Numbered from the stretch's first letter, positions 5,593 through 62,309 are shown. The stretch is DNA of 64,000 nt from Bacteroidales bacterium (GCA_017649855.1 JAGCGA010000007.1:65339-129338); one strand, 5' to 3'. A program made the numbers and translations. Notes: generated by a model from the sequence alone, not told the origin.

Positions 5593-7041
5593 TTACAGCT
5601 TCATTTTTTTGTCGATGTCGTCGATGCTGGCTCGCATCTTTTTATCTGTATCATACAGATTGGCAATGGTTTTGCAGGCATGGAGAACGGTGGCATGATC
5701 CTTGTTGCCACAGTAGGCGCCGATGGTGGAGAGGGGCAGCTTGGTATATTTCTTGGCGAAATACATGCACAATTGGCGCGCGAGGACGATCTCGCTCTTT
5801 CGCGTTTTGGCGTTGATGGTCTCCACGGAGATATTGTAATAGTCGCCAATGATCTTCTGGATATACTCGATGGAGATCTCCTTGGCGCTGGACTTGACAT
5901 ACTTGTCCACCATCTCCTTGGCGAGGTCCATGGTGATCTCCCGGTGGTTGAGGGAGGCCTGCGCAAGGATGGCGATGATGGCGCCTTCCAGCTCGCGGGT
6001 GTTGGACGTGATGCGATAAGCCAGGTAATCCACAATCTCGTCAGGGAACTCGATGCCGTCGTTTTCCAGCTTCTTGCGGATGATGGCATGGCGGGTCTCC
6101 AGATCCGGAATCTGCAGATCAATCGTCAGGCCCCACTTGAAACGGCTGAGCAGACGCGGTTCAAAACCGGAGATATCCACGGGGGACTTGTCGGAGGTGA
6201 TGACAATCTGCTTGTTGTCACGATGCAGGGCATTGAAAATCTGGAAGAAGGTGTCTTGCGTCTTGACCTTTCCACCGCTCATGAACTGGATGTCATCCAT
6301 GATCAGCATATCGAGGGACTGGTAGAAATAGATGAAATCCTGGATATTGTTGTTTTTCATCGCCTGGACATACTGCTGGCAGAAGGTGTCGGCGGTTACA
6401 TACACGACGATCTTTTCCGGAAAGTTGATCTTGGTCTGGATACCGATGGCATTGGCGAGATGGGTTTTGCCCAGTCCCACGTCAGAATAGACGAAGAGCG
6501 GGTTGAAGGAGGTGGTGCCGGGTTCCTTGGAGATGGCCCAGCCAGCTGCGCGGGCCATACGATTGCAGTCGCCCTCCACATAGTTGTCGAACGTCATAGA
6601 GTCGATCAGGTTGGACGGGATCTTACGGCGTTGAATACCCGGGAGCACGAAGGGATCGGGAATCTCGTGGTTCGGCTTGTTAAAGACATCCACCGGAGGA
6701 AGCGTGGAAGGGTTGGTGACGGCCGGGCGGTAGAGCGAAGGCTCCGTCATGAACTTCGACATCTTCGGATCCGGGTTAACCTCTACCGGATAACGGTATT
6801 TGAGCTTGCCCATCGGCCCTAACTGTTTATGGATGACCGTCTTGAGGACATCCACATAGTGCTGTTCCAAAAATTCATTATGGAAAGCACTGGGGGTGAC
6901 GAGCGTCAAAACATTATTCTCCAACGAATAGGGAATCAACGGGGCAAACCAGCTATCAAAGGCCTGGACCCCGACAATTCCGGGGATCATCTTCAGGCAT
7001 TCCGACCACACTTTTCCAGCTTCTACACTTGTATTATTCAT
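5593..7041 (-). CDS. dnaA: chromosomal replication initiator DnaA
   Basis: Walker A SDVGLGKTHL, Walker B LIMDDIQF, C-terminal DNA-binding signature GNKDHATVLHACKTI. Confidence 0.95.
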   Translation of the reverse strand: MNNTSVEAGKVWSECLKMIPGIVGVQAFDSWFAPLIPYSLENNVLTLVTPSAFHNEFLEQHYVDVLKTVIHKQLGPMGKLKYRYPVEVNPDPKMSKFMTEPSLYRPAVTNPSTLPPVDVFNKPNHEIPDPFVLPGIQRRKIPSNLIDSMTFDNYVEGDCNRMARAAGWAISKEPGTTSFNPLFVYSDVGLGKTHLANAIGIQTKINFPEKIVVYVTADTFCQQYVQAMKNNNIQDFIYFYQSLDMLIMDDIQFMSGGKVKTQDTFFQIFNALHRDNKQIVITSDKSPVDISGFEPRLLSRFKWGLTIDLQIPDLETRHAIIRKKLENDGIEFPDEIVDYLAYRITSNTRELEGAIIAILAQASLNHREITMDLAKEMVDKYVKSSAKEISIEYIQKIIGDYYNISVETINAKTRKSEIVLARQLCMYFAKKYTKLPLSTIGAYCGNKDHATVLHACKTIANLYDTDKKMRASIDDIDKKMKL

Positions 7042-9195: not shown

Positions 9196-10476
9196 CTACC
9201 AAGCGAAGAGCGGGCGCTCGCACATCATTTCATTGACTTGCTTGCGGGTCTTGGCAATCAGGTCCTCGTTCTCCACATCGCAGAGGATGGCGTCGATCAT
9301 GGCGACGATACCGTCCATATCGTTCTCTTTCAGACCGCGGGTGGTAATGGCGGGGGTACCGACACGGATACCGGAGGTCTGGAAGGCAGAGCGGGTGTCG
9401 AAGGGAACCATGTTCTTGTTGATGGTGATATCGGCCTTCACGAGGGTGTTCTCAGCCACCTTACCGGTCAGATCCGGGAATTTGGTACGGAGGTCGATGA
9501 GCATCAGGTGGTTGTCAGTGCCATTGGAGATGACCTTGTAGCCTCTCTTGACGAAGGCGTTGGCCATGGCAGCGGCGTTGAGTTTCACCTGTTTTACGTA
9601 TTGAGCATACTCATCGGTCAGAGCCTCACCGAAGGCGACAGCCTTAGCGGCAATCACATGCTCCAGCGGACCACCTTGGCAGCCCGGGAAGACGGCGGAA
9701 TCCAGCATTTGGGACATCATCTTGACGACGCCCTTCGGGGTGGTCTTGCCCCACGGGTTCTCGAAGTCTTTGCCCAGCATGATCAGACCGCCACGAGGTC
9801 CACGAAGGGTCTTGTGGGTAGTGGTCGTCACGATATGGCAATGGGCGATGGCATTGTTCAGGAGACCCTTGGCAATCAAGCCGGCGGGGTGGGAAATGTC
9901 GGCCATCAAGATAGCGCCAACCTTGTCGGCGATCTGACGCATGCGTGCCCAATCCCAGTCGCGGCTGTAGGCAGAGGCACCACCGATGATCAACTTCGGC
10001 TTCTCGCGAAGAGCCACCTCTTCCATCGTGTCATAGTTGACACAACCCGTCTCCTCGTCCACCTGATAAGCCACAGGACGATAGAGGATGCCGGAGGAGT
10101 TCACGGGAGAGCCGTGAGAGAGGTGACCGCCATGGTTCAGGTCGAGGCCCATGAAGGTATCGCCCGGCTGGAGGCAGGTCATCAAGACAGCCATGTTGGC
10201 CTGGGCTCCAGAGTGCGGCTGCACGTTAGCCCACTCACAACCGAAAAGCTTCTTCACACGGTCGATAGCCAGTTGCTCCGACTGGTCCACAATCTGGCAA
10301 CCGCCATAATAACGCTTGCCGGGAAGACCTTCCGCATACTTGTTGGTCATGACAGAACCCATGGCTTCCATCACCTGGTCGCTGACAAAATTCTCGGAGG
10401 CGATCAACTCAATGCCATTTGTCTGGCGTTGACGCTCCTGTTGGATAAGATTGAAAATCTGTTCGTCTCTTTTCAT
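9196..10476 (-). CDS. glyA: serine hydroxymethyltransferase
   Basis: PLP site [14 protein letters not shown]. Full-length 426 aa SHMT pattern. Confidence 0.95.
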
Positions 10477-10621: not shown

Positions 10622-12787
10622 ATGGAACAACAAGAACTTCTTCACCAAGAGAATTCTGAGAATCAGAATGCAGAGGTGAACTCTGGCGCTTCCGTAGAGG
10701 AAGCCACCGTCATTGCGTCAACAGAAACTCCCGCACCTGCAGAGGAAACTGAACCCACCGTTTCTGTACCGGAGGAGCCCGTAGCAGCCGTCGCTGAAGA
10801 GCCGGCGCCTGCCGAGGAACCGGCAGCTGAGGCTGAAGCTGAGGCAGCACCCGCACCCGTTGAGGAGCCTGCACCCGTTGAGGAGCCTGCAGCCGCCCCA
10901 GAGAGCGAAGAGAAGCCGGAAGCAGAAGAACCCGCGCCCGTAGAGGAGACCGTTGAGCAGGTGGAAGCCGAGTATGCCAACTTCGACCTGGAGCAATCCA
11001 TCGCAGAAGTGGAGAGACTCGTCGAAGAGCCCAACTTCAACCTCATCAAGACACGTATGGGCGTGTTGAGAACCAAGATCATTGAATTTTTCCGGGAGCG
11101 CAAGCGTGCTGCCGAGGCTGCCTACGAAGAGGCCCTCAAGTCAGCCCAAAACGCCACGGAGGAGAACCCTGAGGCAGCCACCGAGGTGGAGGCCCCCTCT
11201 TCCGAACCCGACCAATATGAAGTGCGCTTCAACAACGCATTCCAGAAATACAAAGACTCCAAGGCCAAATTCATCGCCGCTTTAGAGGCACAGAAGGTGA
11301 AGAACCTGGAGGCCAAGAACCAGATACTGGACAAACTGAAGAACCTCATCGAGACAGAGTCTCACCTGAAGACCCTGAACGACAAGTTCAAAGAGCTGCA
11401 AGAGGAGTGGAAGAACATCGGACCGGTGCCGCAAACGGAGTCAGCCACGCTCTGGCAGAACTACCACTTCTACGTGGAGAAATTCTTCGACATCCTCCGT
11501 ATCAACAAAGAGATGCGCACCTTGGATCTGAAGAAGAACATGGAGAGCAAGCTGGAGTTGTGCGAAAAGGCAGAGTCTTTGTTGTTAAACGACTCTATCA
11601 ACCAATCATTCAGAGACTTGCAAGCCTTGCACGAGCAATGGAAAGAGATCGGGCCGGTTCCCGAGGAGAAGAAAGAGGAGCTGTGGGAGCGTTTCAAAGC
11701 CGCTTCCGACCAGATCAACCAGCGCAGAAAAGACTATTACGACAAGTTGTTCGAAGAAGAGCAGAACAACTACAATGCCAAGGTTGTGCTTTGCGAGCAA
11801 GCCGAGGACATCGTTGCCAAAGGCTCCGAATCCGTCAAAGACTACAATGAGATCAGCGACAAGCTGACCGAGTTGTTGAACATGTGGAAGACCTTAGGAC
11901 CGGCTCCTGCCAAGCTCAACGACGAGATCTGGAACCGTTTCAAGTCCACCTTGGACAAGTTCTTCGGACAGAAGAAAGAGTACTTCCAGCAAATCAAGGA
12001 TTCGCAGATGCAGAACTACAACCAGAAGTTGAATCTGGCCATCCAGGCGGAGGGCATTGCCGACCGTACGGACTGGAAAGAGGCGACCAACGACATTCTG
12101 AAACTGCAAACCGAATGGAAGAGCATCGGGGCCACCCCGCGCAAATACTCCGACCAGATATGGAAGCGTTTCCGCGCCGCCTGCGACAAGTTCTTTGAGG
12201 CTAAAGCCAACTATTTCAACAACATCCAGGATGTAGAGGCTGAAAACCTGAAGAAGAAAGAGGAGCTCATCGAGAAGATCCTCAACCATGAGTTCGGCGA
12301 TGATCGAAACGCCAACATGGAAGTCATCAAACAATACCAGAACGAGTGGATCCAGATCGGCTTTGTGCCCAGAAAGGACAAAGACCGCGTTTACAGCGAG
12401 TACCGCGCCGCTTTGGACAAGCGTTTTGCCGAGTTGAAGATCAGTGCCAGCGACTTGAGAAACAACCGTTTCAGAAACAAGATTGACAACATCCTCAACG
12501 ACCCGAACGCCGACCGTATCATTGACAAGGAGAAGAACTTCCTCAAGAACAAGCTGCAGAAGCTGAAAGAAGACATCACCTTGTGGGAAAACAACTTAGG
12601 TTTCTTCTCCAACTCCAAGAATGCTGAAATCATCACGGCTGAGTTCCGCAAGAAGATCGACGCTGCCAAGGAGGAAATCAAGGATTTGGAATACAAGATC
12701 CGCATGATGAACGCCCCCAAGAAGGAGGCCACTCCCGAGGAGCCTGCCGAGGCCAGTGAAGCCGCTGCGGACACCAACGAGCAATAA
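10622..12787 (+). CDS. DUF349 repeat protein with acidic Pro/Ala/Glu-rich N-terminus
   Basis: Repeated blocks of type LHEQWKEIGPVPEEKKEELWERFKAA.D.F (at least 5 copies). N-terminal roughly 110 aa of EEPAPAEEPAA repeats. Confidence 0.8.
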   Translation: MEQQELLHQENSENQNAEVNSGASVEEATVIASTETPAPAEETEPTVSVPEEPVAAVAEEPAPAEEPAAEAEAEAAPAPVEEPAPVEEPAAAPESEEKPEAEEPAPVEETVEQVEAEYANFDLEQSIAEVERLVEEPNFNLIKTRMGVLRTKIIEFFRERKRAAEAAYEEALKSAQNATEENPEAATEVEAPSSEPDQYEVRFNNAFQKYKDSKAKFIAALEAQKVKNLEAKNQILDKLKNLIETESHLKTLNDKFKELQEEWKNIGPVPQTESATLWQNYHFYVEKFFDILRINKEMRTLDLKKNMESKLELCEKAESLLLNDSINQSFRDLQALHEQWKEIGPVPEEKKEELWERFKAASDQINQRRKDYYDKLFEEEQNNYNAKVVLCEQAEDIVAKGSESVKDYNEISDKLTELLNMWKTLGPAPAKLNDEIWNRFKSTLDKFFGQKKEYFQQIKDSQMQNYNQKLNLAIQAEGIADRTDWKEATNDILKLQTEWKSIGATPRKYSDQIWKRFRAACDKFFEAKANYFNNIQDVEAENLKKKEELIEKILNHEFGDDRNANMEVIKQYQNEWIQIGFVPRKDKDRVYSEYRAALDKRFAELKISASDLRNNRFRNKIDNILNDPNADRIIDKEKNFLKNKLQKLKEDITLWENNLGFFSNSKNAEIITAEFRKKIDAAKEEIKDLEYKIRMMNAPKKEATPEEPAEASEAAADTNEQ

Positions 12788-13253: not shown

Positions 13254-13649
13254 ATGGAAAACCTGCACATCAGAATCGACAAATGGCTATGGATGGTGCG
13301 GCTCTTCAAGACCCGCTCCCTGGCTACCGAGGCATGCAACGCCGGCAAGGTGAAATGCAACGGTGTCAACGTCAAGCCTTCCAAGGAGGTCAAGACGGAA
13401 GAGGAATACGAGGTGCACATCGGGACGCTCAACAAGCAAGTGCGGGTCCTCGGCACGCCCAAGAGCCGTGTGGGGGCAGCCCTAGTCCCGGACTATTGCG
13501 AAGACCTCACCCCACAGGAGGAGTATGACCGCATGAAGACCCTCCACACCTATGAATATCGGCCGCACGGACTGGGACGCCCCACCAAACGCGACCGCCG
13601 ACAGCTGGAATACATCAAGTCGATGATGGGAGACGGGGAGGAGTTTTGA
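13254..13649 (+). CDS. hslR: S4-domain RNA-binding protein (Hsp15/HslR-like)
   Basis: N-terminal RIDKWLWMVRLFKTRSLATEACNAGKVKCNG is an S4 motif. Confidence 0.7.
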   Translation: MENLHIRIDKWLWMVRLFKTRSLATEACNAGKVKCNGVNVKPSKEVKTEEEYEVHIGTLNKQVRVLGTPKSRVGAALVPDYCEDLTPQEEYDRMKTLHTYEYRPHGLGRPTKRDRRQLEYIKSMMGDGEEF

Positions 13650-13736
13650 CCTTGAACTTTGACCTTGAACTTTGACTTTGAACTTTGACTTTGAACTTTG
13701 ACCTTGAACTTTGACTTTGGCCTTTAGCATTTTGGT
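13645..13736. repeat. A-type array: six 13-mers TTTGACYTTGAAC plus TTTAGCA TTTTGGT tail
   Basis: Units at 13645, 13658, 13671, 13684, 13697, 13710. Read directly. Confidence 0.9.
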
Positions 13737-13760: not shown

Positions 13761-14681
13761 ATGACAAAAGAGGATTTAGTGAATGAAATCAAGCGTTTGC
13801 GTGAAGAAAAGAACGCGATCATTTTAGCGCATTACTACACCCTGCCCGAGGTACAGGAGATTGCCGATTTCGTAGGCGACAGTCTGGCCCTTGCCAGGAA
13901 GGCCGCCAGCACCGATGCCAGCATCATCCTGTTTGCCGGCGTGCACTTCATGGCGGAGACCGCCAAGATCCTGAATCCGGACAAGAAGGTGCTGGTGCCC
14001 GACATGAGCGCCGGCTGCTGTCTTGCCGACAGCTGTCTCGCCGCCGACCTGGCCCGTTTCAAAGAGGAGCATCCAGACTATCTCGTCCTGTCGTATGTCA
14101 ACTGCACTGCGGCAGTCAAGGCACTCTCCGACCTGATTGTCACCTCCGGCAACGCCCTGAAGCTCGTCAACACTCTGCCCAAAGATGCCAAGATACTCTT
14201 CACCCCCGACCAGAACTTAGGTGACTACATCAACCGTCAGACGGGTCGGCAGATGTTGCTGTGGGACGGCATGTGCCGCATCCACGACCACTACACCCTT
14301 GAGGATTTGGCCTTGCTGAGAGAGTCCTACCCCGGCGTAAAGGTAGTGGCCCATCCGGAATGCCGCCGCGAGTTTCTGGCACAAGTCGACTTTGTAGGCT
14401 CCACCGCCGCCATGATCAACTACATCTCCGAGAGTCCTGACCAGGAGTTCATCGTGGCCACGGAAAGCGGCATCCTCCATGAACTGAAGAAACGCAACCC
14501 GGGCAAGACCTTCCACACGCTCTACAACGGCGACCTGGCCCACGACTGCGGAAGCATGAAGAAGAACAACCTGGAGAATATCTACAAGGCGCTGCTCAAC
14601 GAAGATCCGGAGCTGACAATGGATCCGGAGCTGATGGCAAAATCCTTGGCTCCGATACAAAAGATGCTGGAGTTATCGTAG
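13761..14681 (+). CDS. nadA: quinolinate synthase
   Basis: ILAHYY, VHFMAETAKILNP, VVAHPEC. 306 aa. Confidence 0.9.
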   Translation: MTKEDLVNEIKRLREEKNAIILAHYYTLPEVQEIADFVGDSLALARKAASTDASIILFAGVHFMAETAKILNPDKKVLVPDMSAGCCLADSCLAADLARFKEEHPDYLVLSYVNCTAAVKALSDLIVTSGNALKLVNTLPKDAKILFTPDQNLGDYINRQTGRQMLLWDGMCRIHDHYTLEDLALLRESYPGVKVVAHPECRREFLAQVDFVGSTAAMINYISESPDQEFIVATESGILHELKKRNPGKTFHTLYNGDLAHDCGSMKKNNLENIYKALLNEDPELTMDPELMAKSLAPIQKMLELS

Positions 14682-14737
14682 GCCATTGGCTGTTAGCTGT
14701 TAGCCATTGGCTATTAGCCTTTGGCTGTTGGCCTCAG
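14682..14737. repeat. B-type array: eight heptads GCYRTTR
   Basis: GCCATTG GCTGTTA GCTGTTA GCCATTG GCTATTA GCCTTTG GCTGTTG GCCTCAG. Confidence 0.9.
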
Positions 14738-15652
14738 GTATTCCAAGGAAAGGGCAAAGAAGGGGTTGAAGTCGTTGATTCTGAGCAGTGTTTTCAACTC
14801 AGAAGCCTCTATTCCTGCAAAGGAGGCATAATAGTGCCATAGCTCCTTCAAGATGAAGAGGGTGCTTTTTTCTTTGCGGGTTTCCAGCAGTTCATCGGCA
14901 TAGCGCTGATAATAGCGCAAAAATCTCTCTTGCTTGTCGCAACTGTTCATCCCTTTCATTTCTTCTGCCAAAAAAGGATTGCAGAGGATCGGGCGTCCCA
15001 GCATCCAGTCCTGGACCTCCGGGAACCGCGCCTGGAGCTGGCGGTACGTTTCCACGGTCCACACGTCACCACTGTAGATGACGCGATGGGTAGTATGTCG
15101 AAGGCAATCGGCAAAAGCTTCCAAGTCGGGGACGCCATCGTAGAGCTGCTCACCTAAACGGGGATGGATCACGATGTATTCGAGTGGATAGTGTTGCATC
15201 CGCTCCAAGATGGCGAGGCTCTCGGACTTGTCATGCAGTCCCAGCCTCATCTTCAAAGAGAACTGGAAGGGGGTCTGTTCGGTGACAGCCCGGACGACTG
15301 CCTCCACGATTTCGGGATGGGGCATCACGCCGCAGCCGCGCGTGCGTCGTACCACCTGCGCCACGGGACAGCCGATATTCCAATTGAAGGAGGTATAGCC
15401 ATATTCATCGTGCAGCTCCCGCATCGTGTCCACAAAATGGGCCGGGTTGTTGCCCATCAGCTGCGGGGTCATCGGCCGACAGGCATTGTTCTGCGGCCAC
15501 AGATCCTTCCACTTCTTCACGTTGAGCTTGGCATGCTCCTGCACGGGCAAGAAAGGGGCAATAAAATTGTCTATGCCACCGACATGGCGACATAGACAAT
15601 TTCTGAATTGATAGTTCGTAATCCCGTCCAGGGGCGCTAACCAGACAAGCAT
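14714..15652 (-). CDS. tRNA-dihydrouridine synthase family protein
   Basis: LAPLDGITNYQFRN N-terminus and TIM-barrel Dus-like layout. The last ~7 codons lie inside the heptad repeat 14682-14737. Confidence 0.6.
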   Translation of the reverse strand: MLVWLAPLDGITNYQFRNCLCRHVGGIDNFIAPFLPVQEHAKLNVKKWKDLWPQNNACRPMTPQLMGNNPAHFVDTMRELHDEYGYTSFNWNIGCPVAQVVRRTRGCGVMPHPEIVEAVVRAVTEQTPFQFSLKMRLGLHDKSESLAILERMQHYPLEYIVIHPRLGEQLYDGVPDLEAFADCLRHTTHRVIYSGDVWTVETYRQLQARFPEVQDWMLGRPILCNPFLAEEMKGMNSCDKQERFLRYYQRYADELLETRKEKSTLFILKELWHYYASFAGIEASELKTLLRINDFNPFFALSLEYLRPTAKG

Positions 15653-16675: not shown

Positions 16676-16742
16676 GTTGAACTTTGGCTGTTGGCCATTA
16701 GCCATTAGCTGTCACTTCTAACTGTCAACTGCCAACTAACTA
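16676..16742. repeat. compact composite A-B-C element
   Basis: GTTGAACTTTG, then GCTGTTG GCCATTA GCCATTA GCTGTCA, then CTTCTAA CTGTCAA CTGCCAA CTAACTA. Confidence 0.85.
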
Positions 16743-28930: not shown

Positions 28931-29725
28931 TTACACTCTATTTAACAAACACAACACAATGGCTCCTGCCACGATGGCCATACCAAAGCTAAGCAAGGTG
29001 CCGACCAACACATATTCTGACTTGTTCGTGGCACTATCTTTGAAACGCAGGAGTGATTTCGCAGCCAGCAGGAAACCGATGGCTTCAAAATGGCCAAACA
29101 TCATAAAAATCAAAGTTAACAATCGCTCCACATCGCCAATCACATGTCCTGCATTGGGCAAATCTTGAGCGGATGCTGGCACATCGGCATCATTGTCTTC
29201 TTGTGATGACGAATCAGACGCAGGATCGTGCGGACACTTGATTTGGGCGTTGGACAGAATTTCACCGATGAAAATATTGGCCGGACGCAGACAAAAGGCA
29301 AAGGCGGTGATCCAGAGCCATGTGGAGTTGGAGATCATATTGAGCGGGGTGACCACGCCATCATAGGGAATTTTATAGCTCACGGTACTGCCAAACCAGG
29401 CAACCACCGCACCAATGACCAGCAGGTGCAACGCTTGGTCTATAAAAAACACCCAAGGGACCTTTTTGAAATGAGCTTTCAACCCGTCAATCACACCATG
29501 CAGCACGGCAATGACCATGGAAGCCCACCAAAAATCAAAAGTATAGGGATACAGGAGCGACAACATCCAAGAACAGAAGAAGGTGATGGCCACATGCACG
29601 TACAAATGCGGTGATTGGAATCCCCATTTGGCCTTATCCTGGCAAGATTTACCTGTTTGCAGATAAAAATCGCTGATGATATGAGCCAATATCTGCAATA
29701 TGAAGAGTTTAATCATCATTATCAA
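28931..29725 (-). CDS. DUF3307 membrane protein (SatE-like)
   Basis: N-terminus LFILQILAHIISDFYLQT, later HGVIDGLKAH and DQALHLL. Start overlaps the SatD-like stop by 8-17 nt depending on which Met is used. Confidence 0.6.
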   Translation of the reverse strand: MIMMIKLFILQILAHIISDFYLQTGKSCQDKAKWGFQSPHLYVHVAITFFCSWMLSLLYPYTFDFWWASMVIAVLHGVIDGLKAHFKKVPWVFFIDQALHLLVIGAVVAWFGSTVSYKIPYDGVVTPLNMISNSTWLWITAFAFCLRPANIFIGEILSNAQIKCPHDPASDSSSQEDNDADVPASAQDLPNAGHVIGDVERLLTLIFMMFGHFEAIGFLLAAKSLLRFKDSATNKSEYVLVGTLLSFGMAIVAGAIVLCLLNRV

Positions 29726-30416
29726 GATTTAGGGTTTCATAGTAAAGCACCGCCTGCTCCAATGCGTTCCAGCCGACCGCGGTGCTATGCTGATTGACAG
29801 CTGATTGCTTGATATTCAATATTTCAGCTATCTCCATCTCTGTTTTTCCGGAGAGTTTCTGATACAAGACCTCGCACTGACGCGCATTGGCCTTTCGAAG
29901 CAACACGTCGATGAGGCCCAACAACACATTCATCTGTTGCGTCAAGGAGTCGTTGTCGGCTTTGAAGAAGAGAGTATTCTTGATCACCGCCCGCTCCTTC
30001 TGGGAGGTTCCTTGGTATTCCATCAAGCGCCCGGCGTAGTAGATAGCCTCGCCATCCAGCGTATCACGCTCTTTGTCGGCAACACGCATTTCGCCCAAGC
30101 CGATAGCCATCCGAATGCCATATTTCTTGAAAAGGATTCTTTTATTTTTCCTTTCCGGAGTTGCGTCTTCCAGATCCTTCAAAGGCATCTGTTTCACCAA
30201 CGTCTTCAATTTCAAGGCCGTACGCAGCGCTTTGTGGGGATCAGACAAGAAAATCTCCACCGCGTCTCCCTTGACTATTCTACCCCACTGTGTGGTAGTA
30301 TCGTCATGTTCAAGTTCACTCAAGAAACGGCGGATACTTTGGTTAAGGGCACTCTTCTCCTCCATGGACAAGGAGGAAGAGGATACGATATCGGCTGAGA
30401 TAGCTGCTTGTACCAT
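29709..30416 (-). CDS. SatD-like protein: cyclase-homology-like N-domain plus C-terminal HTH
   Basis: N-terminus AAISADIVSSSSL ... IVKGDAVEIF. C-terminus QCEVLYQKLSGKTEMEIAEILNIKQSAVNQHS is a sigma70-region4/LuxR-type HTH. Confidence 0.55.
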   Translation of the reverse strand: MVQAAISADIVSSSSLSMEEKSALNQSIRRFLSELEHDDTTTQWGRIVKGDAVEIFLSDPHKALRTALKLKTLVKQMPLKDLEDATPERKNKRILFKKYGIRMAIGLGEMRVADKERDTLDGEAIYYAGRLMEYQGTSQKERAVIKNTLFFKADNDSLTQQMNVLLGLIDVLLRKANARQCEVLYQKLSGKTEMEIAEILNIKQSAVNQHSTAVGWNALEQAVLYYETLNLDNDD

Positions 30417-30433: not shown

Positions 30434-30441
30434 CAAAGATA
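30434..30441 (-). promoter_or_regulatory. -7 box TATCTTTG
   Basis: 18 nt upstream of the SatD-like ATG at 30416, and 7 nt from the first operator-like unit. Confidence 0.5.
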
Positions 30442-30447
30442 CATTTT

Positions 30448-30534
30448 TTATAAGTAAAAACACTTATAAAAATAATTTATAAGTAAAAAAGCTTATAATA
30501 CATATTTATAAGCAAATAGACTTATAAACAAGGT
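30448..30534 (-). promoter_or_regulatory. three tandem 29-bp units, each with inverted repeat TTATAAG-N8-CTTATAA (candidate operator array)
   Basis: Units start at 30448, 30477, 30506. Half-sites at 30448, 30463, 30477, 30492, 30506, 30521. Array lies between the galE stop and the -7 box of the SatD-like gene. Confidence 0.6.
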
Positions 30535-43328: not shown

Positions 43329-44513
43329 ATGAAGTCGAACCATTTTTTTACTTGGTTGCTTATGCTCAGCCTGTTGTGCACAAATCTCGCAGTGACAGCG
43401 CAGAACGACACCATCCCTTTTCTCTACCGTGGGCATCTCTACTTTAACGCCACCCTCAACGACACCATCCGCCTCAACATCATATATGACACCGGAGGCG
43501 CCGACCTGTTCGGGGTGGACTCCGTATGGCTGGCCCATTCCAACTGGACGCCCATGCATGTTGTCACTGCCCGGGGCGGAGGCGGGGCCGGCTCCATGCT
43601 CGTTCCACTCATCATCGATCAAACAAAGGTCAACATCGGCAGTATCCAGGAATATTACGACATGGTTCCGGTCTTCAAACTGCGGGAGGTGGTGGACTGC
43701 CACATCGACGGCATCAGTGGCATCAAGGGCATTGAAAACCATCCGTTGGAGATCAACTTCGAGCACAACTTGATGATCCAGCACAAAAACGGCCTGCCCG
43801 ACACAGAAGGTTATCAGAAAATCCCCATCAGACACGAAAACAACCGTATATACCTTCAGGCAGAGACCAAAATCGGAGGCACCCTAGTCAAAGGATGGTA
43901 TCTGATGGACACTGGCAGCGGCGGCTCCGTCACTTTCACTTCCCAAACCGCCAGCCAATTCCAATTCGACACCATATCCGGAAAAAGATATATCAACGAT
44001 GTCATCCAAAGCGGCCTGGGCGACAAGACTGAGGAATACGCCATCAGCATGATGCCCGACTTCATGGTTATCGGGGACGACACCATCTCGGGAAGGCCTC
44101 TCAACTACAAACCTGAAGGCGTGGGCGCTTTCGGCAACGCAGAATACCTGGGGGTGATCGGCAACGCCATCTGGTCGAAGTACAACATTATCATCGATTC
44201 GGAAAACGAGATGCTCTACCTGCGTCGTTTCAAGGAGTTCACCCCGCCCATCCCCGCTTATGACTATACTTTCAGAAACCGCACGGATATCTGCAAAGGC
44301 TGGGTGGTCTCAGGAATGACCCGCGAGGGGGATGCCGCCAACGCAGGCATGGCGTTGGGCGACACCATCATCTCCATCAACGGAAGAAACGTGACCGACT
44401 ACTCCTGGGAAGAGGAATGGGACATCGACACCATCCCCATGCAGGTGCTGGACATCCTAGACCACGACGGCACCGAAAAACGCATTACGCTGGAGGCGAA
44501 GCAATGGTGGTAG
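43329..44513 (+). CDS. secreted pepsin/retropepsin-like aspartyl protease with C-terminal PDZ domain
   Basis: Two D-T-G motifs (IIYDTGGADL, LMDTGSGGSV). PDZ-like GDAANAGMALGDTIISINGRNV. Signal peptide from MKSNHFF (43329). Confidence 0.65.
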   Translation: MKSNHFFTWLLMLSLLCTNLAVTAQNDTIPFLYRGHLYFNATLNDTIRLNIIYDTGGADLFGVDSVWLAHSNWTPMHVVTARGGGGAGSMLVPLIIDQTKVNIGSIQEYYDMVPVFKLREVVDCHIDGISGIKGIENHPLEINFEHNLMIQHKNGLPDTEGYQKIPIRHENNRIYLQAETKIGGTLVKGWYLMDTGSGGSVTFTSQTASQFQFDTISGKRYINDVIQSGLGDKTEEYAISMMPDFMVIGDDTISGRPLNYKPEGVGAFGNAEYLGVIGNAIWSKYNIIIDSENEMLYLRRFKEFTPPIPAYDYTFRNRTDICKGWVVSGMTREGDAANAGMALGDTIISINGRNVTDYSWEEEWDIDTIPMQVLDILDHDGTEKRITLEAKQWW

Positions 44514-44520
44514 GATATCA

Positions 44521-44622
44521 GCTGTTGGCTGTTGGCCATTAGCTATTAGCCATTGGCGGGTAGGGTGACTTTGACTTTGAACTTTGACTTTGAACTTTGG
44601 ACTTCTAACTGATAACTGATCA
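44521..44622. repeat. composite B-A-C element
   Basis: Six B heptads (44521-44562), A run TTTGAC/TTTGAAC (44566-44601), three C heptads (44602-44622). Confidence 0.9.
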
Positions 44623-46152
44623 CTTTTTGAAGGGCAGCGAAATCATGAAGGTACTCCCCTTCCCCTCGATGCTCTGCACCTCGATCTTGCCTTTGTGCAG
44701 GTTCACAATCTTCTTCACATAGCCCAGACCCAGGCCGTAGCCCTTCACATTGTGCACGTTGCCACTGGGCACCCGGTAGAAGTTGTTGAAGATCTCACCC
44801 AGCGACTTCTTCGGAATCCCGATGCCCTTGTCGGTGACAGAGAGCATGAAATATTTGTCGTTGGAGAGGGTGTTGATGAGGATCTCCGGCTCGTGTTCCG
44901 AATACTTGATGGCATTTTCCACGAGGTTAACCAGCACATTAGTTAAATGCTCTTTGTCTCCGAATATCTTATAGTTATCTGCATTGAGCGCCAGATTGAG
45001 AGAGCCATTATTGCTGTTCACCAGCAGGGCCACACTGTCCACCACTTTCCGGATCAACTCGTGCATATCCAGCAGCTCAACGTTCATCTTGACCTGTCCT
45101 TTTTTGAGCTGCGCAATTTGCAGGATGTTGGTCACCATGGAACGAAGCCGCTCGTTCTCATCATGGATGATGTTGACGTATGCGGTCTGCATGTCGGGAT
45201 CCGACATGGTCACGTTGTCGCCCAGCGCCTCGCAGGCCAGCGAGATGGTGGAAATGGGCGTCTTGAACTCATGGGTCATGTTGTCCACAAACTCATTGGT
45301 CACCTCCGACACTTTTTTCTGGCGATAGAGGGAGATCAGGGAGACCAAGGAGATGGCAGAGACCAGGAAGAGCAGGAAGAGAATCATGATCACGATGGTG
45401 CTCATCCTTTGGAGGAAGATTCCGCGCTCACCGGGGAAATAGAGGATGATATAGTGGGGAGAGCTCACCTTCTCATTGTATTTCAGGCGGAACACATAAT
45501 CGCTCTGGAGCATCTTCTCGCGCGGCATATAGGCCGGCTCCACCACAAACTCAGTGGTGAATGCATTGTAGAGGGCGAAGTCGAAGCGGGCTTCGATGGT
45601 CTCCTCATGGAGGGCCTCCTCCAACAGGTTGCGCAGGAGACTGGGTGACAGCAGCAGCTTCGTCGTGCTGTCGAGCTGCACCATGTTGACATCCACATTC
45701 TCGAGGAAGCTGTTGGGAATCTCCTCCTGGTTCTTGGGCGACCATGGGTCTTTGTACAATGGGAAGAGTGTCCGGAAGGAGTCGCTGAAGTAGGTGGTGT
45801 CGCTGGAAACGACGCGCGCATTGTCTTCTTTCAGGTAGATCTCCGTCATAATCACCCCTATAGGCTGATTCTTCGCACTGTCTATCAAAAATTTACGAAT
45901 ATTCTGCACCGAGACCACATCCGAGGTGTCCATCGTTCCCGTCAAGGTAGTGTCGGCCAGGGGAAGCGTGTCGTTCTTCAAGATGGCATCGATCTGGTCC
46001 ACCACGGTGTTGCCAGCGGAGAGCACCTCATTGACGAAGATGCTGCGCTGCACCTTCTCCGCCTCCGTGTAGAGCTTGAAGATGGAGAGCATCAGAAAGA
46101 AGGTGGTGACAATCACCACTAAAAACAGCGAAACTAATATTCTCTTTTTCAT
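44620..46152 (-). CDS. sensor histidine kinase
   Basis: H-box MTHEFKTPISTI, N-box LVNLVENAIKYS, G-boxes DKGIGI and GYGLGL. Two TM segments. Confidence 0.85.
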   Translation of the reverse strand: MKKRILVSLFLVVIVTTFFLMLSIFKLYTEAEKVQRSIFVNEVLSAGNTVVDQIDAILKNDTLPLADTTLTGTMDTSDVVSVQNIRKFLIDSAKNQPIGVIMTEIYLKEDNARVVSSDTTYFSDSFRTLFPLYKDPWSPKNQEEIPNSFLENVDVNMVQLDSTTKLLLSPSLLRNLLEEALHEETIEARFDFALYNAFTTEFVVEPAYMPREKMLQSDYVFRLKYNEKVSSPHYIILYFPGERGIFLQRMSTIVIMILFLLFLVSAISLVSLISLYRQKKVSEVTNEFVDNMTHEFKTPISTISLACEALGDNVTMSDPDMQTAYVNIIHDENERLRSMVTNILQIAQLKKGQVKMNVELLDMHELIRKVVDSVALLVNSNNGSLNLALNADNYKIFGDKEHLTNVLVNLVENAIKYSEHEPEILINTLSNDKYFMLSVTDKGIGIPKKSLGEIFNNFYRVPSGNVHNVKGYGLGLGYVKKIVNLHKGKIEVQSIEGKGSTFMISLPFKK

Positions 46153-54061: not shown

Positions 54062-54171
54062 CAACTTTATCTCCACATTTCACCTCAAACTGTAGCTGTC
54101 ATCCCCTTCTACCAAGCTTTAACCCCTGCGGGGTTTCTCGCACCCTGCAACTCATCGTGCCAAGGCTTTAA

Positions 54172-54206
54172 CTCTTAACTGCTAACTGACAACTGTCAAC
54201 TCCTTA
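54172..54206. repeat. C-type array: five heptads
   Basis: CTCTTAA CTGCTAA CTGACAA CTGTCAA CTCCTTA. Confidence 0.85.
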
Positions 54207-58442: not shown

Positions 58443-60434
58443 CTATTCGCCTTGGAGGATTGCGCGCAGCTCCTCCACAGAGAAGCAGACCTTGCGGACG
58501 CGCGGGGCACGCACGTGCTTACGCTTCGGGGACTTCGGCACGACAGGGGGCTCCGAGAAGCGCTGACATATTCCATAGCCCGCCATCACACAATACTGAA
58601 GGAGCATCTGCCCGGTCGGATCCTCAATCGCCAGACTGCTATGGACATTACTCCGAAGATCTTCCATACTATTCATAAAGAAATAGTCGGCCAGGTCGGC
58701 ACGAATAGTATAATAGTAAATCAACTGATCATGGCTAATTACCAGCGAGTCAATTCTTCCAAAGTTGGGAATCTCCATCGGGCAATAGCGATTGTTCGAC
58801 CTCACTATCAGGGACAAGGCGTTACGGCTTTCGAACAGCGGATCGCCGTCGTTCGTCAGCAAAAAGCGAACCTCTTGGGGAGAGTAGGTAAATTGGAGGG
58901 AGTCCTGGGTGGGGACATACAGATAATGCAGCTGGATTCCCAGGCCGAGTTGGACGATATATTGGCCGAACTCATTCCGGCTTTCTGTTCGTAACGCGAA
59001 TTCCATCAACTCGTCCAGGCCGGCTGTATCCAAAAAGTCCAGCACTTCTTCCTTCATCTCGTAATAGAAATGCACTGTCTCCCCATCATATACAACCTTG
59101 GTCATCATCACACTGCCAGCAGGGATCGGGCACTGTTCATTGACCAACTCCACTAATTGATTGAAGTCTGCCTGTTCCAGCTTTGCCATGGCTGCCGTCT
59201 GCAGATCCTCATGGGAATAAAACGCCTTGGGTTCCGCATTTTGCAATTCATCCACGCTCATTATGACCTCAGAATAACGACGAGTTTTATTCTCCACGAA
59301 TACCAAACGCACCCCTTTCAACAGTTTGTAACAATGTTCCAGCGTATAGACCTTATTGCCTTTGACCGCAGGAGGAAACTCTTCCAACAATAGATAAGCC
59401 CAATGCGAAAGCAGGATATCTTTGAGCGCCGTGGCTGCTTGCTGATCCATCACCTTCTCATCTTCATAGGTAAGAACAAGCTGAAGGATATCATCCTCAT
59501 AATCGAATTCCATATCCATCAACTCCTCGTCACGAGCAATCATTTCTTTCCGTGAATTTTCTAAATCCTCACGAAAGAACTCTTTCAGATAGGTTCGCAT
59601 CTCATCATCGGAAGCCTCCTGCAGGTGTTCTGACTGCGCCATCAATTGCTGCAATTGCTCGTTGGGAAAATCCAGCTTGAAAGAGCGAGTATGGTCCGCA
59701 TCCCAATACAAGAATCGCAGTCCGTAACCAGCATAGAACAAAGCGCTTGTGAATGGATGATTGAAGAGAAGCACATTGGTGATGTTCTTTTTCGTCACAT
59801 CCAACCCAGGAAGCACTTCCTCATCCCAAGAGAGCGGAACTCTCAACGAATAGGAATAGGTCAGCCAGGAATCTACCAACATGACCGTATCCATAGAGAA
59901 CACATCGTCCTCGGGTTCTCTCTCTTGATTCTCCGTATAGATCTGTCTGGCCACCAGATAGCGAGCCACCCACTGGTCGGAATTTTTATATTCGGGTTTG
60001 TCGCTGTCTTTCAGAAACTGCCGGACCTCCTCCGCCGAGTAACGCAAGGTAATGACACTATCATTTTCCATCAAGCGAAACACATAGACAAGACCTCCTT
60101 TCACATCTTCTTTTAAAGGAATATAGAATGCACCAAACGGTTCCAGCCACTCTTGATATCGAAGTCTATCGGCAAAGTGCTGTCTCAGGGTCACGCTATC
60201 AAATCCCGCCAGATCACTCTCCTCTATCGTTGCATAGAAACAGAGGGAGCCTTCTTTGAAACGGAAATCAGTAATGATGCAGTCTTCCATTTGAATGGGA
60301 CATACAGCATCCGCCGTTTGGTTGATTCGCTGGGCATATTGCGAAGTGGTAGGCTGCGCCTGCACATCCATACACAGCAGACACACCCACGCACAGACGA
60401 GCCAGCCACCCCACGAAAAATGTTGATCAGACAT
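58443..60434 (-). CDS. secreted protein of five tandem ~130-aa modules, unknown function
   Basis: Signal-like N-terminus. Five module ends: RYSAEEVRQFL, DFPNEQLQQLM, IMSVDELQNA, TYSPQEVRFLL, CFSVEELRAIL. Confidence 0.65.
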   Translation of the reverse strand: MSDQHFSWGGWLVCAWVCLLCMDVQAQPTTSQYAQRINQTADAVCPIQMEDCIITDFRFKEGSLCFYATIEESDLAGFDSVTLRQHFADRLRYQEWLEPFGAFYIPLKEDVKGGLVYVFRLMENDSVITLRYSAEEVRQFLKDSDKPEYKNSDQWVARYLVARQIYTENQEREPEDDVFSMDTVMLVDSWLTYSYSLRVPLSWDEEVLPGLDVTKKNITNVLLFNHPFTSALFYAGYGLRFLYWDADHTRSFKLDFPNEQLQQLMAQSEHLQEASDDEMRTYLKEFFREDLENSRKEMIARDEELMDMEFDYEDDILQLVLTYEDEKVMDQQAATALKDILLSHWAYLLLEEFPPAVKGNKVYTLEHCYKLLKGVRLVFVENKTRRYSEVIMSVDELQNAEPKAFYSHEDLQTAAMAKLEQADFNQLVELVNEQCPIPAGSVMMTKVVYDGETVHFYYEMKEEVLDFLDTAGLDELMEFALRTESRNEFGQYIVQLGLGIQLHYLYVPTQDSLQFTYSPQEVRFLLTNDGDPLFESRNALSLIVRSNNRYCPMEIPNFGRIDSLVISHDQLIYYYTIRADLADYFFMNSMEDLRSNVHSSLAIEDPTGQMLLQYCVMAGYGICQRFSEPPVVPKSPKRKHVRAPRVRKVCFSVEELRAILQGE

Positions 60435-60442
60435 ATAAAAAG

Positions 60443-60586
60443 TTGTCAGTTGTCAATTATCAGTTGTCAGTTTTAGTCAATGTTCAAAGTCAAAGTCAAT
60501 GTTCAAAGTTCAAAGTTTCCGGTTTCAAGATGAAATAGCTAATAGCCAATGGCTAACAGCTAACAGCCAATGGCCAACAGCCAAAC
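60443..60586. repeat. composite element in inverted orientation (C'-A'-B')
   Basis: TTGTCAG TTGTCAA TTATCAG TTGTCAG (60443-60470). GTCAATGTTCAAAGTCAAAGTCAATGTTCAAAGTTCAAAG (60476-60515). Seven heptads GCTAATA..GCCAAAC (60538-60586). Confidence 0.9.
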
Positions 60587-62233
60587 CTAAAGATTCACAT
60601 TCTGGTCCTTCGGGTACTTCACGCTGTAGGAGACGCTGAAGGTGCGGGTCTCGCCGGCCTTGAGTTCCATCTCCCAGGTCAGGACGCCAATGCCCTCCTT
60701 GTTATAGGTAGCGGCGGGAGTCACATCGCCCAGCTTGACCTCGATGTCCTTGTTGTTGGAGATCGGATACTGCTCCTTGAGCGTCAGCTTCACAGGCTTG
60801 GTCTGGTTGTTTTTGACCGTGATCTGGTATGCCTGGGTGACGGTCGTGGTGTTCCCCACATGCTTGGTGCTACAGTAGTTGCTCATCTTCTCCCGTTTGA
60901 CGGAGATGCGTGGGTCGGTGGTCAGCGTCAGCGATATATGCTCATCGGTCACATTGGGGCGCAGGAAAGTCTTGCCCACGAAAGTGTTCTCGAAGGTCAC
61001 GGTAGCGTAGCCCGGCAACAGGTTGTATTGTTCATAGTCGGACAGGTCGGCGATGAGGTAGGTCTCGTCAGACAGCTTCGGGGCGCTGTAGTACTTGTAG
61101 TCGGCCTTGATGTCGTAGCTCTTCAGGTCGATGAGCTGCTCTTTGCCGTTGCCGGGGATGTCGTAGGGCACCGAGATATTGTAGTTGACGGCCACCTCCT
61201 GCATATCCACGTCCACGTAGTCGTCCATCACCAGCGGCGCGGTGGGCGTCCTGGCAGAGGAACTCTCGGCATCTTTGGCCGAGACGCCTTCCAGAGAAGC
61301 AGTCGCGTATGTGACACTATTGCTTCTGGCTTGCACCCCATCCACAATGTAGGATTTGCCCTGACGATGAGGATTGTAAAAGCTGAGGAACCACGTCTTG
61401 AACACGGGGGCCTCCTTCGTGCGGTTGGGCGTGGCGTTGGAGAGTGTCAGTTTCACGTTGTTCCAGTCGATGCCCGTCACCTGCGTCACCTGGGCTTTGG
61501 ATTTCAGCACCACAGGCTTGTCCATGGAGGCGATGTTGATGTCGTAGCAAGGCACCCAGCTGGCCATAACGGTAAAATAGGAGATGGTGAACACCGTGTT
61601 GACCGTCTGCGGCACGCTCACGGTGAGGCGAAGCACGCCCGTGCGCTGCTTGTCTTTGGACTGATCCTGGGAGATCTGCCGCTGAAGACGTTTCACCGTC
61701 TCGTCCAGCTTGGCGATTTTGAGGTTATCCTGGTCGATGCTATGCTGCAGCGGGGCAGCCTTCGACTTATAGAGTTCCATGTTGGCGTTGATGTCGGCCA
61801 CGGAAACGGTGCCATCCTTCTGACTCATATTGTTGAGGGTGCCGTCGGTGAGCATCTTGAGCAGATGGGTATGGACGGTCAACTCGTCCTTAGCCTCCTG
61901 CAGCTGGCGTTTGTAGGAGTACAAGGAGTCTTGCAACTTCTTGATGCGGGCGCTCTCTTCCTTGGGGGTGATATAATCGTTGGAGAACTCAGAGGCGGAG
62001 ATGAGCACGCCGTTGGCGGAGACCTTCAGGCTGGCAATCTCAATATCGGGGCTCAGCCCATTGATCATGACATCATAGCTTCCGCTCTTCAGCGAGGCGG
62101 TGGCCGTATGGGTCAGGGCGGCGCCTTGCAGATAGACGGTGGCATGGTCAATCTTGGCGGTAAACTCATTCTGGGCAAAAAGGGCGGAGAGAGCCCCTGC
62201 AAAAAGCATAATCGTGAGCAGAACTTTTTTCAT
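60587..62233 (-). CDS. DUF4139 / mucoidy-inhibitor MuiA-like protein
   Basis: Signal peptide. N-terminal VTVYLQGA-type start (ATVYLQGAALTH), central coiled coil, C-terminal beta domain. Start at MKKVLL (62233). Confidence 0.6.
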   Translation of the reverse strand: MKKVLLTIMLFAGALSALFAQNEFTAKIDHATVYLQGAALTHTATASLKSGSYDVMINGLSPDIEIASLKVSANGVLISASEFSNDYITPKEESARIKKLQDSLYSYKRQLQEAKDELTVHTHLLKMLTDGTLNNMSQKDGTVSVADINANMELYKSKAAPLQHSIDQDNLKIAKLDETVKRLQRQISQDQSKDKQRTGVLRLTVSVPQTVNTVFTISYFTVMASWVPCYDINIASMDKPVVLKSKAQVTQVTGIDWNNVKLTLSNATPNRTKEAPVFKTWFLSFYNPHRQGKSYIVDGVQARSNSVTYATASLEGVSAKDAESSSARTPTAPLVMDDYVDVDMQEVAVNYNISVPYDIPGNGKEQLIDLKSYDIKADYKYYSAPKLSDETYLIADLSDYEQYNLLPGYATVTFENTFVGKTFLRPNVTDEHISLTLTTDPRISVKREKMSNYCSTKHVGNTTTVTQAYQITVKNNQTKPVKLTLKEQYPISNNKDIEVKLGDVTPAATYNKEGIGVLTWEMELKAGETRTFSVSYSVKYPKDQNVNL

Positions 62234-62309
62234 GATAAGCAAATATTAAATGAAACAATATTTGAAACGGCTAAAATATCAAAATATTACAATAGATAAA
62301 TAAATATTG

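Follow-up and report, generated by a model that had tools for sequence, protein, structure and literature searches.

Intergenic heptamer repeats have, to our knowledge, been known since 1990 from cyanobacteria and since 2015 from Beggiatoaceae and Bacteroidetes, and we know of no accepted function for them. Here, we describe a 152-nt spacer (60435-60586, minus strand) that consists of such repeats and lies between the genes of a DUF4140+DUF4139 protein and of a 663-aa protein in a 64,000-nt stretch of DNA from an uncultured Bacteroidales bacterium (GCA_017649855.1 JAGCGA010000007.1:65339-129338), called the window below. In the direction of transcription, three families of heptads, B (GCYRTTR), A (ACTTTGA) and C (AACTGAY), follow each other from the stop codon of the upstream gene to the start codon of the downstream one.

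Among the systems that resemble this spacer are the cyanobacterial STRR heptamers, reportedly described by Mazel in 1990; the reverse complement of the B unit, CAACAGC, comes close to CAACAGT, which we take to be the STRR3 unit. Such long simple-sequence repeats (LSSR/STRR) share with the arrays studied here the tandem 7-nt period, the mostly intergenic position and whole-unit changes from strain to strain. The present arrays differ in that three families stand in a fixed order and fill a whole spacer, in their specific orientation at stops and starts, and in their Bacteroidales host. The BOX elements of Streptococcus pneumoniae are modular intergenic elements with a fixed order and a variable number of middle-module copies; they are transcribed and affect neighboring genes. 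Fixed module order and variable copy number are common to both systems, but BOX modules measure 45-59 nt and fold as a unit, whereas here the modules are arrays of 7-nt units, with A and C predicted to be unstructured.

The C module has a published counterpart. TAACTGA repeats stand forward just upstream of starts, with one reversed set after a stop in F. litoralis, and occur in some Bacteroidetes mixed with "larger assemblages of heptamer repeats" (MacGregor 2015, PMC4679880). Like them, C is intergenic, forward and a few nucleotides before a start without a Shine-Dalgarno sequence (GGAGG is absent from the spacer). By contrast, the GCYRTTR and ACTTTGA families, the fixed B-A-C order and the rule for the reverse strand at stops do not appear in that paper, and a search of the literature, also by repeat sequence, turned up neither the two families nor the order or the stop/start strand rule. 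We classify the spacer as a compound heptanucleotide simple-sequence repeat (SSR) whose C part probably belongs to the TAACTGA class: its 7-nt units lie head to tail beyond chance expectation, and whole copies are gained or lost between relatives.

Repetitive extragenic palindromic (REP/BIME) sequences are transcribed, form hairpins often inside operons and in many cases start within 15 nt of a stop, a position from which they stall ribosomes and lower translation (Liang 2015, as summarized in PMC12306157). The B arrays resemble them in being extragenic and in forming a predicted hairpin after stops (-28 kcal/mol in the window), where they start at a distance of -1 to 13 nt with a 46:7 sense bias. 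REP, however, is an imperfect palindrome of ~35 nt with a 5' GTAG/tetranucleotide head, spread by RAYT (IS200/IS605-like) transposases, whereas B consists of 7-nt repeats in varying number, lacks a conserved head and has a stem that relies on G-U pairs. The arrays would work like REP/BIME or BOX elements yet lack the features that define these elements. In H. influenzae, 7-bp repeats upstream of hmw1A are associated with phase variation (PMC8262952, PMC12721329). The spacer is similar to this tract in being a 7-nt SSR before the start of a gene for a surface or secreted protein, with a unit number that differs between strains; unlike the tract, it yielded no evidence of within-population switching in the assemblies, and its modules also occur between convergent genes. 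Initiation in Bacteroidetes proceeds without Shine-Dalgarno sequences and is tuned by mRNA structure (PMC6847099).

A single heptad array fills the spacer from stop to start

The spacer extends over 152 nt from the TAG stop (60587-60589) of the DUF4139 gene to the ATG (60432-60434) of the 663-aa gene and forms, on the minus strand, a single continuous array of ~22 heptads arranged as stop-B-A-C-ATG. The initial annotation had reported this order after the upstream stop, as well as a spacer made almost wholly of repeat, and both the sequence and Tandem Repeats Finder (TRF) confirm the two points, the latter returning period-7 arrays at 60441-60472, 60477-60517 and 60534-60584 with 4.6, 6.1 and 7.3 copies, respectively. 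Between the stop codon and the B module lies a GTTTG (60582-60586, minus strand). The B module itself (60533-60581, minus strand), delineated by sequence, TRF and folds, comprises seven GCYRTTR heptads, in order GCTGTTG, GCCATTG, GCTGTTA, GCTGTTA, GCCATTG, GCTATTA and GCTATTT, and its sense RNA is predicted to fold on itself through G-C and G-U pairs. A 16-nt linker, CATCTTGAAACCGGAA (60517-60532, minus strand), reads as two degenerate heptads in register. It leads into the A module (60472-60516, minus strand; sequence and TRF), which has seven ACTTTGA/ACATTG/ACTAAA units with a mixed 6/7-nt period and is predicted to be unpaired. The same prediction holds for the C module (60444-60471, minus strand; sequence, TRF and MacGregor 2015), where four AACTGAY-type heptads, probably of the TAACTGA class (ACTGACA, ACTGATA, ATTGACA and ACTGACA), stand forward before the start codon. 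The tail ACTTTTTAT (60435-60443, minus strand) separates the last C heptad from the ATG and is kept in orthologues. The C array had been placed 8 nt from the ATG; its adjacency to the start codon stands, while the last clean C heptad ends 9 nt off, a trivial difference.

Since every unit fits a common frame, RCY+N4 (GCT-GTTG, ACT-TTGA, ACT-GACA), the whole spacer can be regarded as one degenerate array of ~22 heptads. Its 16 stop codons are distributed over the three sense frames. Arrays of the B, A and C families with at least two units number 12 in the window, against a mean of 0.1 in 100 shuffles, which excludes chance as their origin. An assembly artefact is ruled out by the identical spacer sequence in four independent assemblies (two from ENA, two from Logan); two contigs break within the B array. 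Being made of repeats alone, the spacer offers a natural test case for the effects of individual modules on mRNA stability, termination and Shine-Dalgarno-independent initiation in Bacteroidia.

Array orientation follows stop and start codons

Across three data sets, the foldable G/U-rich strand of the arrays abuts stops and the structure-free C/A-rich strand abuts starts, a rule that is statistically solid. The open reading frames (ORFs) used for the counts come from a crude heuristic (at least 100 codons for the B stop test), and the taxonomy of hits outside Bacteroidota derives from metagenome-assembled genomes (MAGs). The B-family 21-mer GGCTGTTGGCCATTRGCYRTT was found in more than 116 stretches of a 185,579-species genome collection, where ~2 are expected by chance; its hosts are mostly MAGs of Bacteroidales, Prevotella, Saprospiraceae and Cyclobacteriaceae, together with some Gemmatimonadota, Chloroflexota and Acidobacteriota. 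Among 155 B arrays, 46 start -1 to 13 nt after a same-strand stop, as opposed to 7 antisense ones (p 7.6e-9). With stops at any position within an array included, the ratio is 55:9 in favor of sense (p 3.5e-9), and a bias created by antisense arrays absorbed into ORF ends is thereby ruled out.

The B bias is positional and concerns only the strand that touches the stop codon. In co-directional spacers overall, sense and antisense B arrays are equally frequent (25:25; solo arrays 14:15), which rules out a simple preference along the direction of transcription. Antisense B arrays sit away from the stop, about half of them at most 30 nt from the next start. The 3' side of B carries 22 heptad arrays of other families and 15 inverted B arrays, the 5' side five arrays of other families.

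The placement of C-type arrays is the mirror image of this pattern. In 102 independent C-type arrays from viral contigs, the reverse strand, RTCAGTT, prevails after stops (32:9, p 4e-4) and the forward strand before starts (26:12, p 0.03). Arrays of the A type are unbiased at both sites (9:9 after stops, 14:12 before starts). At seven of the eight stop-array junctions of the window, the terminating gene has the G/U-rich strand of the array in its own sense; among them are the junctions of both convergent genes at 44521 and those of the 16677 and 54171 copies, whose orientation had initially looked inverted. The polarity proposed in the initial annotation is upheld, as B-A-C follows an upstream stop in the direction of transcription at three independent loci and keeps its order in orthologues, and it generalizes, for B arrays to ~100 other genomes (55:9 at stops) and for C-type arrays to the viral set (26:12 before starts). 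It follows from the orientation rule that the selective constraint is placed on the RNA and not on the DNA. The rule is simple and directly testable, and the contact of sense B-type arrays with stops in many Bacteroidota and other phyla is new, as is the mirror-image placement of C-type arrays.

Two observations concern arrays in other settings. Where B-type arrays fall inside long ORFs (loci L012-L127, other genomes), they are antisense to the ORF in a ratio of 33:6, and the coding strand of these ORFs reads CAACAGCCAATGGCC, giving low-complexity linkers rich in Q/N/P/T/A; this may be a separate, protein-level use of the arrays or may reflect spurious ORF calls. Arrays of the A and C types are common among IMG/VR viral contigs, where three consecutive ACTTTGA units occur in 44 stretches and three AACTGAY units in more than 120, often within longer AACTNNN runs (A-type loci L142-L185, the others from L186 onward). 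The B-type 21-mer had zero matches in 2.9 million viral contigs, which rules out viral carriage of B.

The B strand at stops is predicted to fold on itself

All folding values are predictions in kcal/mol. Six tandem copies of the B unit, (GCUGUUG)6, fold at -12.4 kcal/mol and their complement at -0.7 kcal/mol, while (AACUGAC)6 and its complement give 0.0 and -7.6 kcal/mol. The A family is structure-neutral either way, with -1.2 kcal/mol for (ACUUUGA)6 and 0.0 kcal/mol for its complement. The B hexamer T-R-G-C-Y-R is palindromic provided that G-U pairs are allowed, and because the palindrome needs these pairs, its Y/R variation is tolerated only in the sense RNA. In natural B arrays after stops, the sense strand is the more stable one in 41 of 46 cases, with a mean of -13.4 vs -9.3 kcal/mol for antisense, and the seven-unit B array of the window reaches ~-28 kcal/mol. 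The leader formed by A and C folds at -4.2 kcal/mol over 97 nt and is unpaired in the centroid structure. A long hairpin joining B to C around an A loop was considered and rejected: B and C are complementary at five of seven positions per heptad, yet the folds pair B with itself and leave C open.

Several B arrays in other genomes (L028, L029, L105 and L111) have a stop codon on one side and a canonical terminator hairpin on the other and are, by virtue of this position, transcribed as part of 3' untranslated regions (UTRs). A T-run follows 12 of 46 B arrays in other genomes. A known RNA family is ruled out for the arrays, as Rfam 15 gave no match in the whole window at gathering thresholds and both B-A-C composites of the window returned only chance-level matches to eukaryotic families (E>1).

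Module order is kept while unit numbers change

The comparison in relatives that the initial annotation had called for shows B-A-C kept between the DUF4139 and 663-aa genes in three diverged lineages, with differing unit numbers. A relative at 98% protein identity lacks exactly 21 nt of the spacer, corresponding to three B units, and relatives at 84% and 81% identity have spacers of 77 and 75 nt with 3 B, 1-3 A and 3-4 C units. Such changes of the unit number in sevens, within a kept order, are the mark of slippage. All four lineages have B-A-C at this site, even though other arrays have vanished at this degree of divergence. In the 84% orthologue, an exact TATTTTTG occupies the B/A junction, 48 nt before the ATG.

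Other junctions turn over faster. Where the window carries an A array between the S4-domain gene and nadA, relatives have a degenerate B-like stretch, AGTTGAY and TAACTGA arrays or 18 repeat-free nucleotides; the last case, with only 18 nt between the genes, identifies an operon junction and indicates that arrays grow within such junctions. The nadA-dus and DUF819 junctions gain or lose arrays among relatives, and the spacer between the PDZ-domain and His-kinase genes ranges from 19 to 253 nt, the 253-nt version (L141) reading B, A ... C-like. In that version, a short canonical hairpin, AAACTGCG-GGGA-CGCAGTTT (11330-11350), stands between the A array and the C-like array, which suggests that the real terminator of convergent spacers sits between repeat modules.

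B-A-C recurs as an arrangement and is probably not a mobile unit

The second composite of the window, which had been described as having the same order on the plus strand, is confirmed at 44521..44629 (plus strand), between convergent genes. Its B module starts 7 nt after the stop of the PDZ-domain gene (44511-44513), and the stop of the His-kinase gene (44620-44622, minus strand) falls in its last C unit. It contains two exact TAACTGA units at 44608-44621, whereas the units at 60444-60471 are CAACTGA/TAATTGA variants with no exact copy. A pattern scan of 241 million metagenome records yielded one further true composite (L128), in which the TAG of the second B unit terminates an ispG-like ORF; after this come six B, four A, three transitional and four C units, and the last of these run directly into the ATG of an aminotransferase gene. 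Order and polarity are therefore the same at three unrelated loci (60443, 44521 and the ispG/aminotransferase locus), which also share the junction strings TTGACTAAAACT and ACTTCTAACTG beyond the heptads themselves.

The initial annotation had treated B-A-C as one element with several copies. Its recurring order is borne out, but single modules exist as well (A at 13645, B at 14682), and close relatives gain or lose modules or have other heptads in their place. We found no terminal inverted repeats, target duplications or conserved ends in the composites; the one inverted pair present lies within B, the 60443 copy has no arms linking its ends as a miniature inverted-repeat transposable element (MITE) would, and the B/A junctions differ at each locus. 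With no terminal inverted repeats or shared ends and a single further composite, we reject a MITE or other mobile element and regard B-A-C as three repeat families in a recurring arrangement rather than as a transposable unit; the arrangement may spread by copying or form anew under a mutational rule.

The spacer is plausibly transcribed with both flanking genes

The upstream gene (60587..62242, minus strand; gene calls in L001) encodes the DUF4140+DUF4139 protein (Pfam E 9.6e-52 and 4.9e-17), and the call in related contigs corresponds to a start at ~62233. The downstream gene (58443..60434, minus strand; ATG 60432-60434) encodes the 663-aa protein, which has a signal-peptide-like N-terminus. 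As no Pfam domain matches it and 5.8 billion proteins contain just three clusters of homologues (98, 84 and 81% identity), this protein is, judged by its sequence, an ORFan restricted to the lineage. The proteins of the window include T9SS sorting domains.

Co-transcription of the two genes across the spacer finds support in several observations. They form a co-directional pair, with a divergent neighbor on one side and a convergent one on the other, and their adjacency is kept in four lineages, comprising every relative found. The spacer (60435-60586) had neither a predicted sigma-70-like site nor, on both strands, a terminator-like one; the B stem is followed by AUUUCAUC, in which 4 of 8 nt are U, and falls short of an intrinsic terminator. 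B arrays elsewhere are transcribed, as described above. It is thus plausible that the repeat lies inside an operon and its mRNA. The statement that the spacer holds no TAnnTTTG box, made in support of the same point, needs correction, because one exact match, TAGGTTTG (60582-60589, minus strand), straddles the stop codon and consists of the codon and the first 5 nt of the spacer. This box, the only exact match near the spacer, lies 148 nt from the ATG and is not conserved (orthologues read TTCG), and the A units match TAnnTTTG at seven of eight positions. The motif is used in this genome, as the window contains 39 matches vs 18.7 expected.

A proposed role for RNA structure and its alternatives

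The anatomy, the indels in multiples of seven, the recurring order, the orientation statistics and the predicted folding asymmetry are established here; transcription across the spacer, any effects on mRNA stability or translation, and selection rather than mere tolerance are inferences. The account that we tentatively favor, while placing it slightly below an even chance, is that slippage produces transcribed arrays whose orientation is then filtered by selection on RNA structure, with B as a REP-like hairpin and A plus C as an unstructured leader. Replication slippage would build the spacer and resize it in 7-nt units, and the resulting arrays would be transcribed together with both genes. 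Selection on the RNA would then filter array direction, retaining the self-pairing G/U-rich strand at the stop and the structureless, C/A-rich and G-poor strand at the start. The B hairpin, beginning 5 nt after the DUF4139 stop, could provide REP-like protection or attenuation of the upstream cistron and, being within 15 nt of the stop, may by analogy with REP slow the terminating ribosome. A and C would together supply the 663-aa gene with a ~95-nt unstructured, G-poor leader lacking a Shine-Dalgarno sequence; such a leader would suit the ribosomes of Bacteroidia, which are guided by mRNA structure and not by Shine-Dalgarno sequences. Gain or loss of units would shift how much one cistron yields relative to the other. 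Should the arrays indeed adjust the expression of neighboring genes, they would amount to a fast-evolving regulatory layer in abundant gut and rumen bacteria.

Several results weigh against this proposal. With three B units each, the 84% and 81% orthologues have weak B folds (-9 to -10 kcal/mol), and the whole-spacer folding z-scores are unremarkable (-1.76 and -1.56). The order of B units is not optimized for folding either: a permutation test on 47 arrays was negative (mean z +0.10, p 0.53), so that selection on unit order is rejected and folding is a property of the heptad family rather than evidence of selection at the locus. At the nadA, dus, DUF819 and PDZ/His-kinase junctions, close relatives have no array or a different one, which makes the arrays dispensable at these loci. 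On the transcriptional side, the seven-unit B hairpin (~-28 kcal/mol), with UAUUUCAUCUU after it, could end a fraction of the transcripts, and A units (TGACTTTG, GAACTTTG) differ from the Bacteroidetes -7 box at a single position. The DUF4139 gene has no exact TAnnTTTG box of its own, which makes the scarcity of exact boxes in the spacer weak evidence. The strand balance in co-directional spacers and the crude ORF calls behind the orientation counts belong here too, and the data do not separate an orientation that is selected for from one that remains because the other is selected against.

This last point leads to the main rival, according to which the arrays are functionless microsatellites, neutral or selfish, with which slippage fills free intergenic space and whose polarity records only the harmless orientations; a foldable G/U-rich array, for example, would block an adjacent start, and a C/A-rich one after a stop might load Rho or cause spurious translation. 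We regard this as somewhat unlikely, though it accommodates the fast turnover at the same junction among relatives with 87-94% NadA and 78-87% PDZ-protein identity, the unoptimized unit order and the arrays that reach and overrun neighboring stops (dus, His kinase, S4-domain gene, ispG). Heptamers are also the commonest long SSR in prokaryotes and have been ascribed to polymerase slippage, to the extent that Mrazek 2007 is reported in PMC4679880. The 55:9 and 32:9 biases nonetheless call for purifying selection on the RNA as a minimum, several phyla share one 21-mer (>116 vs ~2 expected), and the DUF4139/663-aa spacer retains B-A-C in all four lineages despite a divergence at which other arrays were lost. 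That composites might instead be copied, with a MITE-, REP/BIME- or BOX-like element inserting ready-made B-A-C after stops, appears most improbable: the common module order at three unrelated loci and the junction strings TTGACTAAAACT and ACTTCTAACTG would fit such a source, but terminal inverted repeats, target duplications and conserved ends are missing, the B/A junctions differ at every locus, modules occur singly and beside other heptad families, one further composite turned up in 241 million metagenome records, and B-type arrays are absent from 2.9 million viral contigs.

Two further explanations assign the heptads a reader or a switch. If a single-strand-binding domain covering ~7 nt (cold-shock, S1 OB-fold or Bacteroidales RRM-1) occupied each heptad, arrays could recruit or exclude ribosomes or RNases, with different proteins reading different families. 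The strict 7-nt period of three families in one RCY+N4 frame and the recurrence of identical heptads in different phyla speak for such a platform, as do the binding of one CspB per heptamer and the proposal of S1 and Csp as TAACTGA readers (PMC4679880) and the presence in Bacteroides of one cold-shock protein (CSP) and of RRM-1 proteins that bind single-stranded RNA (PMC13370968, PMC11697453). We nevertheless judge it quite unlikely, given that a crosslinking and immunoprecipitation (CLIP) study of RbpB reports no heptad motif, that a 7-nt slippage preference suffices for the period, and that the heptad families at one junction differ between close relatives, which argues against a specific reader. 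The other explanation operates at the DNA level: the A run, with TTG/TTTG every 6-7 nt, would serve as -33/-7-like boxes of an internal promoter, and slippage would alter promoter spacing or 5' UTR length and switch the 663-aa protein, as in the 7-bp repeats of hmw1A/hmw2A. Unit number does vary between strains, the downstream protein is lineage-restricted with a signal-peptide-like N-terminus, heptanucleotide repeats in promoters and 5' UTRs drive phase variation (PMC8262952, PMC12721329), and the 7/8 matches of the A units to TAnnTTTG become an exact box in the 84% orthologue (TATTTTTG, 48 nt before the ATG). Such a contingency locus is still very unlikely in our estimate. The spacer has no exact box apart from the non-conserved one on the stop codon, the four assemblies of the window strain are identical (assemblies collapse minor variants), the same modules lie between convergent genes with nothing to drive, and A-type arrays have no orientation bias relative to genes.

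A broader extension of the RNA-level proposal, speculative and in our view unlikely, is that the arrays constitute a cross-phylum, orientation-coded punctuation of intergenic RNA, of which the B-A-C spacer would be a complete stop-to-start cassette and not junk. G/U-rich heptads (GCYRTTR) would mark the 3' side of stops and act on the terminating ribosome and on mRNA decay, and their C/A-rich complements would mark initiation regions that work without Shine-Dalgarno sequences. A domain with a 7-nt footprint (cold-shock, S1 or RRM) might read both strands, and rapid changes in unit number would tune the expression ratio of neighboring cistrons.

Other arrays and features of the window

Heptad arrays occupy six of the 33 window spacers of at least 25 nt. 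An A-only array (13645..13720, plus strand) has the TGA stop of the S4-domain gene (13647-13649) in its first unit and the nadA start 40 nt downstream. The B-only array at 14682..14733 (plus strand; hairpin z-score -3.06) directly follows the nadA stop (14679-14681) and contains the dus stop (14714-16, minus strand). At 16677..16742 (plus strand), a partial composite consists of one A unit, three B units and four C-like units, and its G/U-rich strand, on the minus strand, comes directly after the DUF819 stop (16740-16742). A C-like array at 54171..54203 (plus strand) reads AGTTGAC, AGTTGTC, AGTTAGC ... on the minus strand, directly after the stop of a TonB-dependent receptor gene (54204-54206).

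The stops of four genes fall within arrays, namely those of the S4-domain gene, dus, the His kinase and the ispG-like ORF (L128, ~480). Arrays have overrun and now supply the ends of neighboring genes, which misleads the annotation of gene ends; in practice, they are a cause of both assembly breaks and miscalled gene ends. The AGTTGAY family, the reverse complement of C-like units, stands directly after the stops of the S4-domain, Peptidase_S51, TonB receptor and DUF819 genes (L135 at 9836-9900 and 14954-15020; window at 54171-54203 and 16720-16739, read on the minus strand).

A dnaA gene at 5593-7041 (minus strand; Pfam DnaA_N, Bac_DnaA and Bac_DnaA_C) places the window beside a probable replication origin. 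The cumulative GC skew climbs from ~10 kb to ~56 kb, and in five of the six window arrays the plus strand, probably the leading one, is the G/T-rich strand; array polarity may have a replication-linked component.

Two features lie apart from the arrays. Three TTATAAG-N7-9-CTTATAA inverted motifs at 30440-30530 (TRF period 29, 2.9 copies) adjoin a TATCTTTG box (30434-30441, minus strand) and the start (30416) of the minus-strand gene 29709-30416, an arrangement that looks like a triple transcription-factor operator. Just past the right end of the window (L001 3093-4543), adjacent genes encode RyR-domain and TIR/ThsB-like proteins; they are flanked by large domainless genes and possibly form a defense island.

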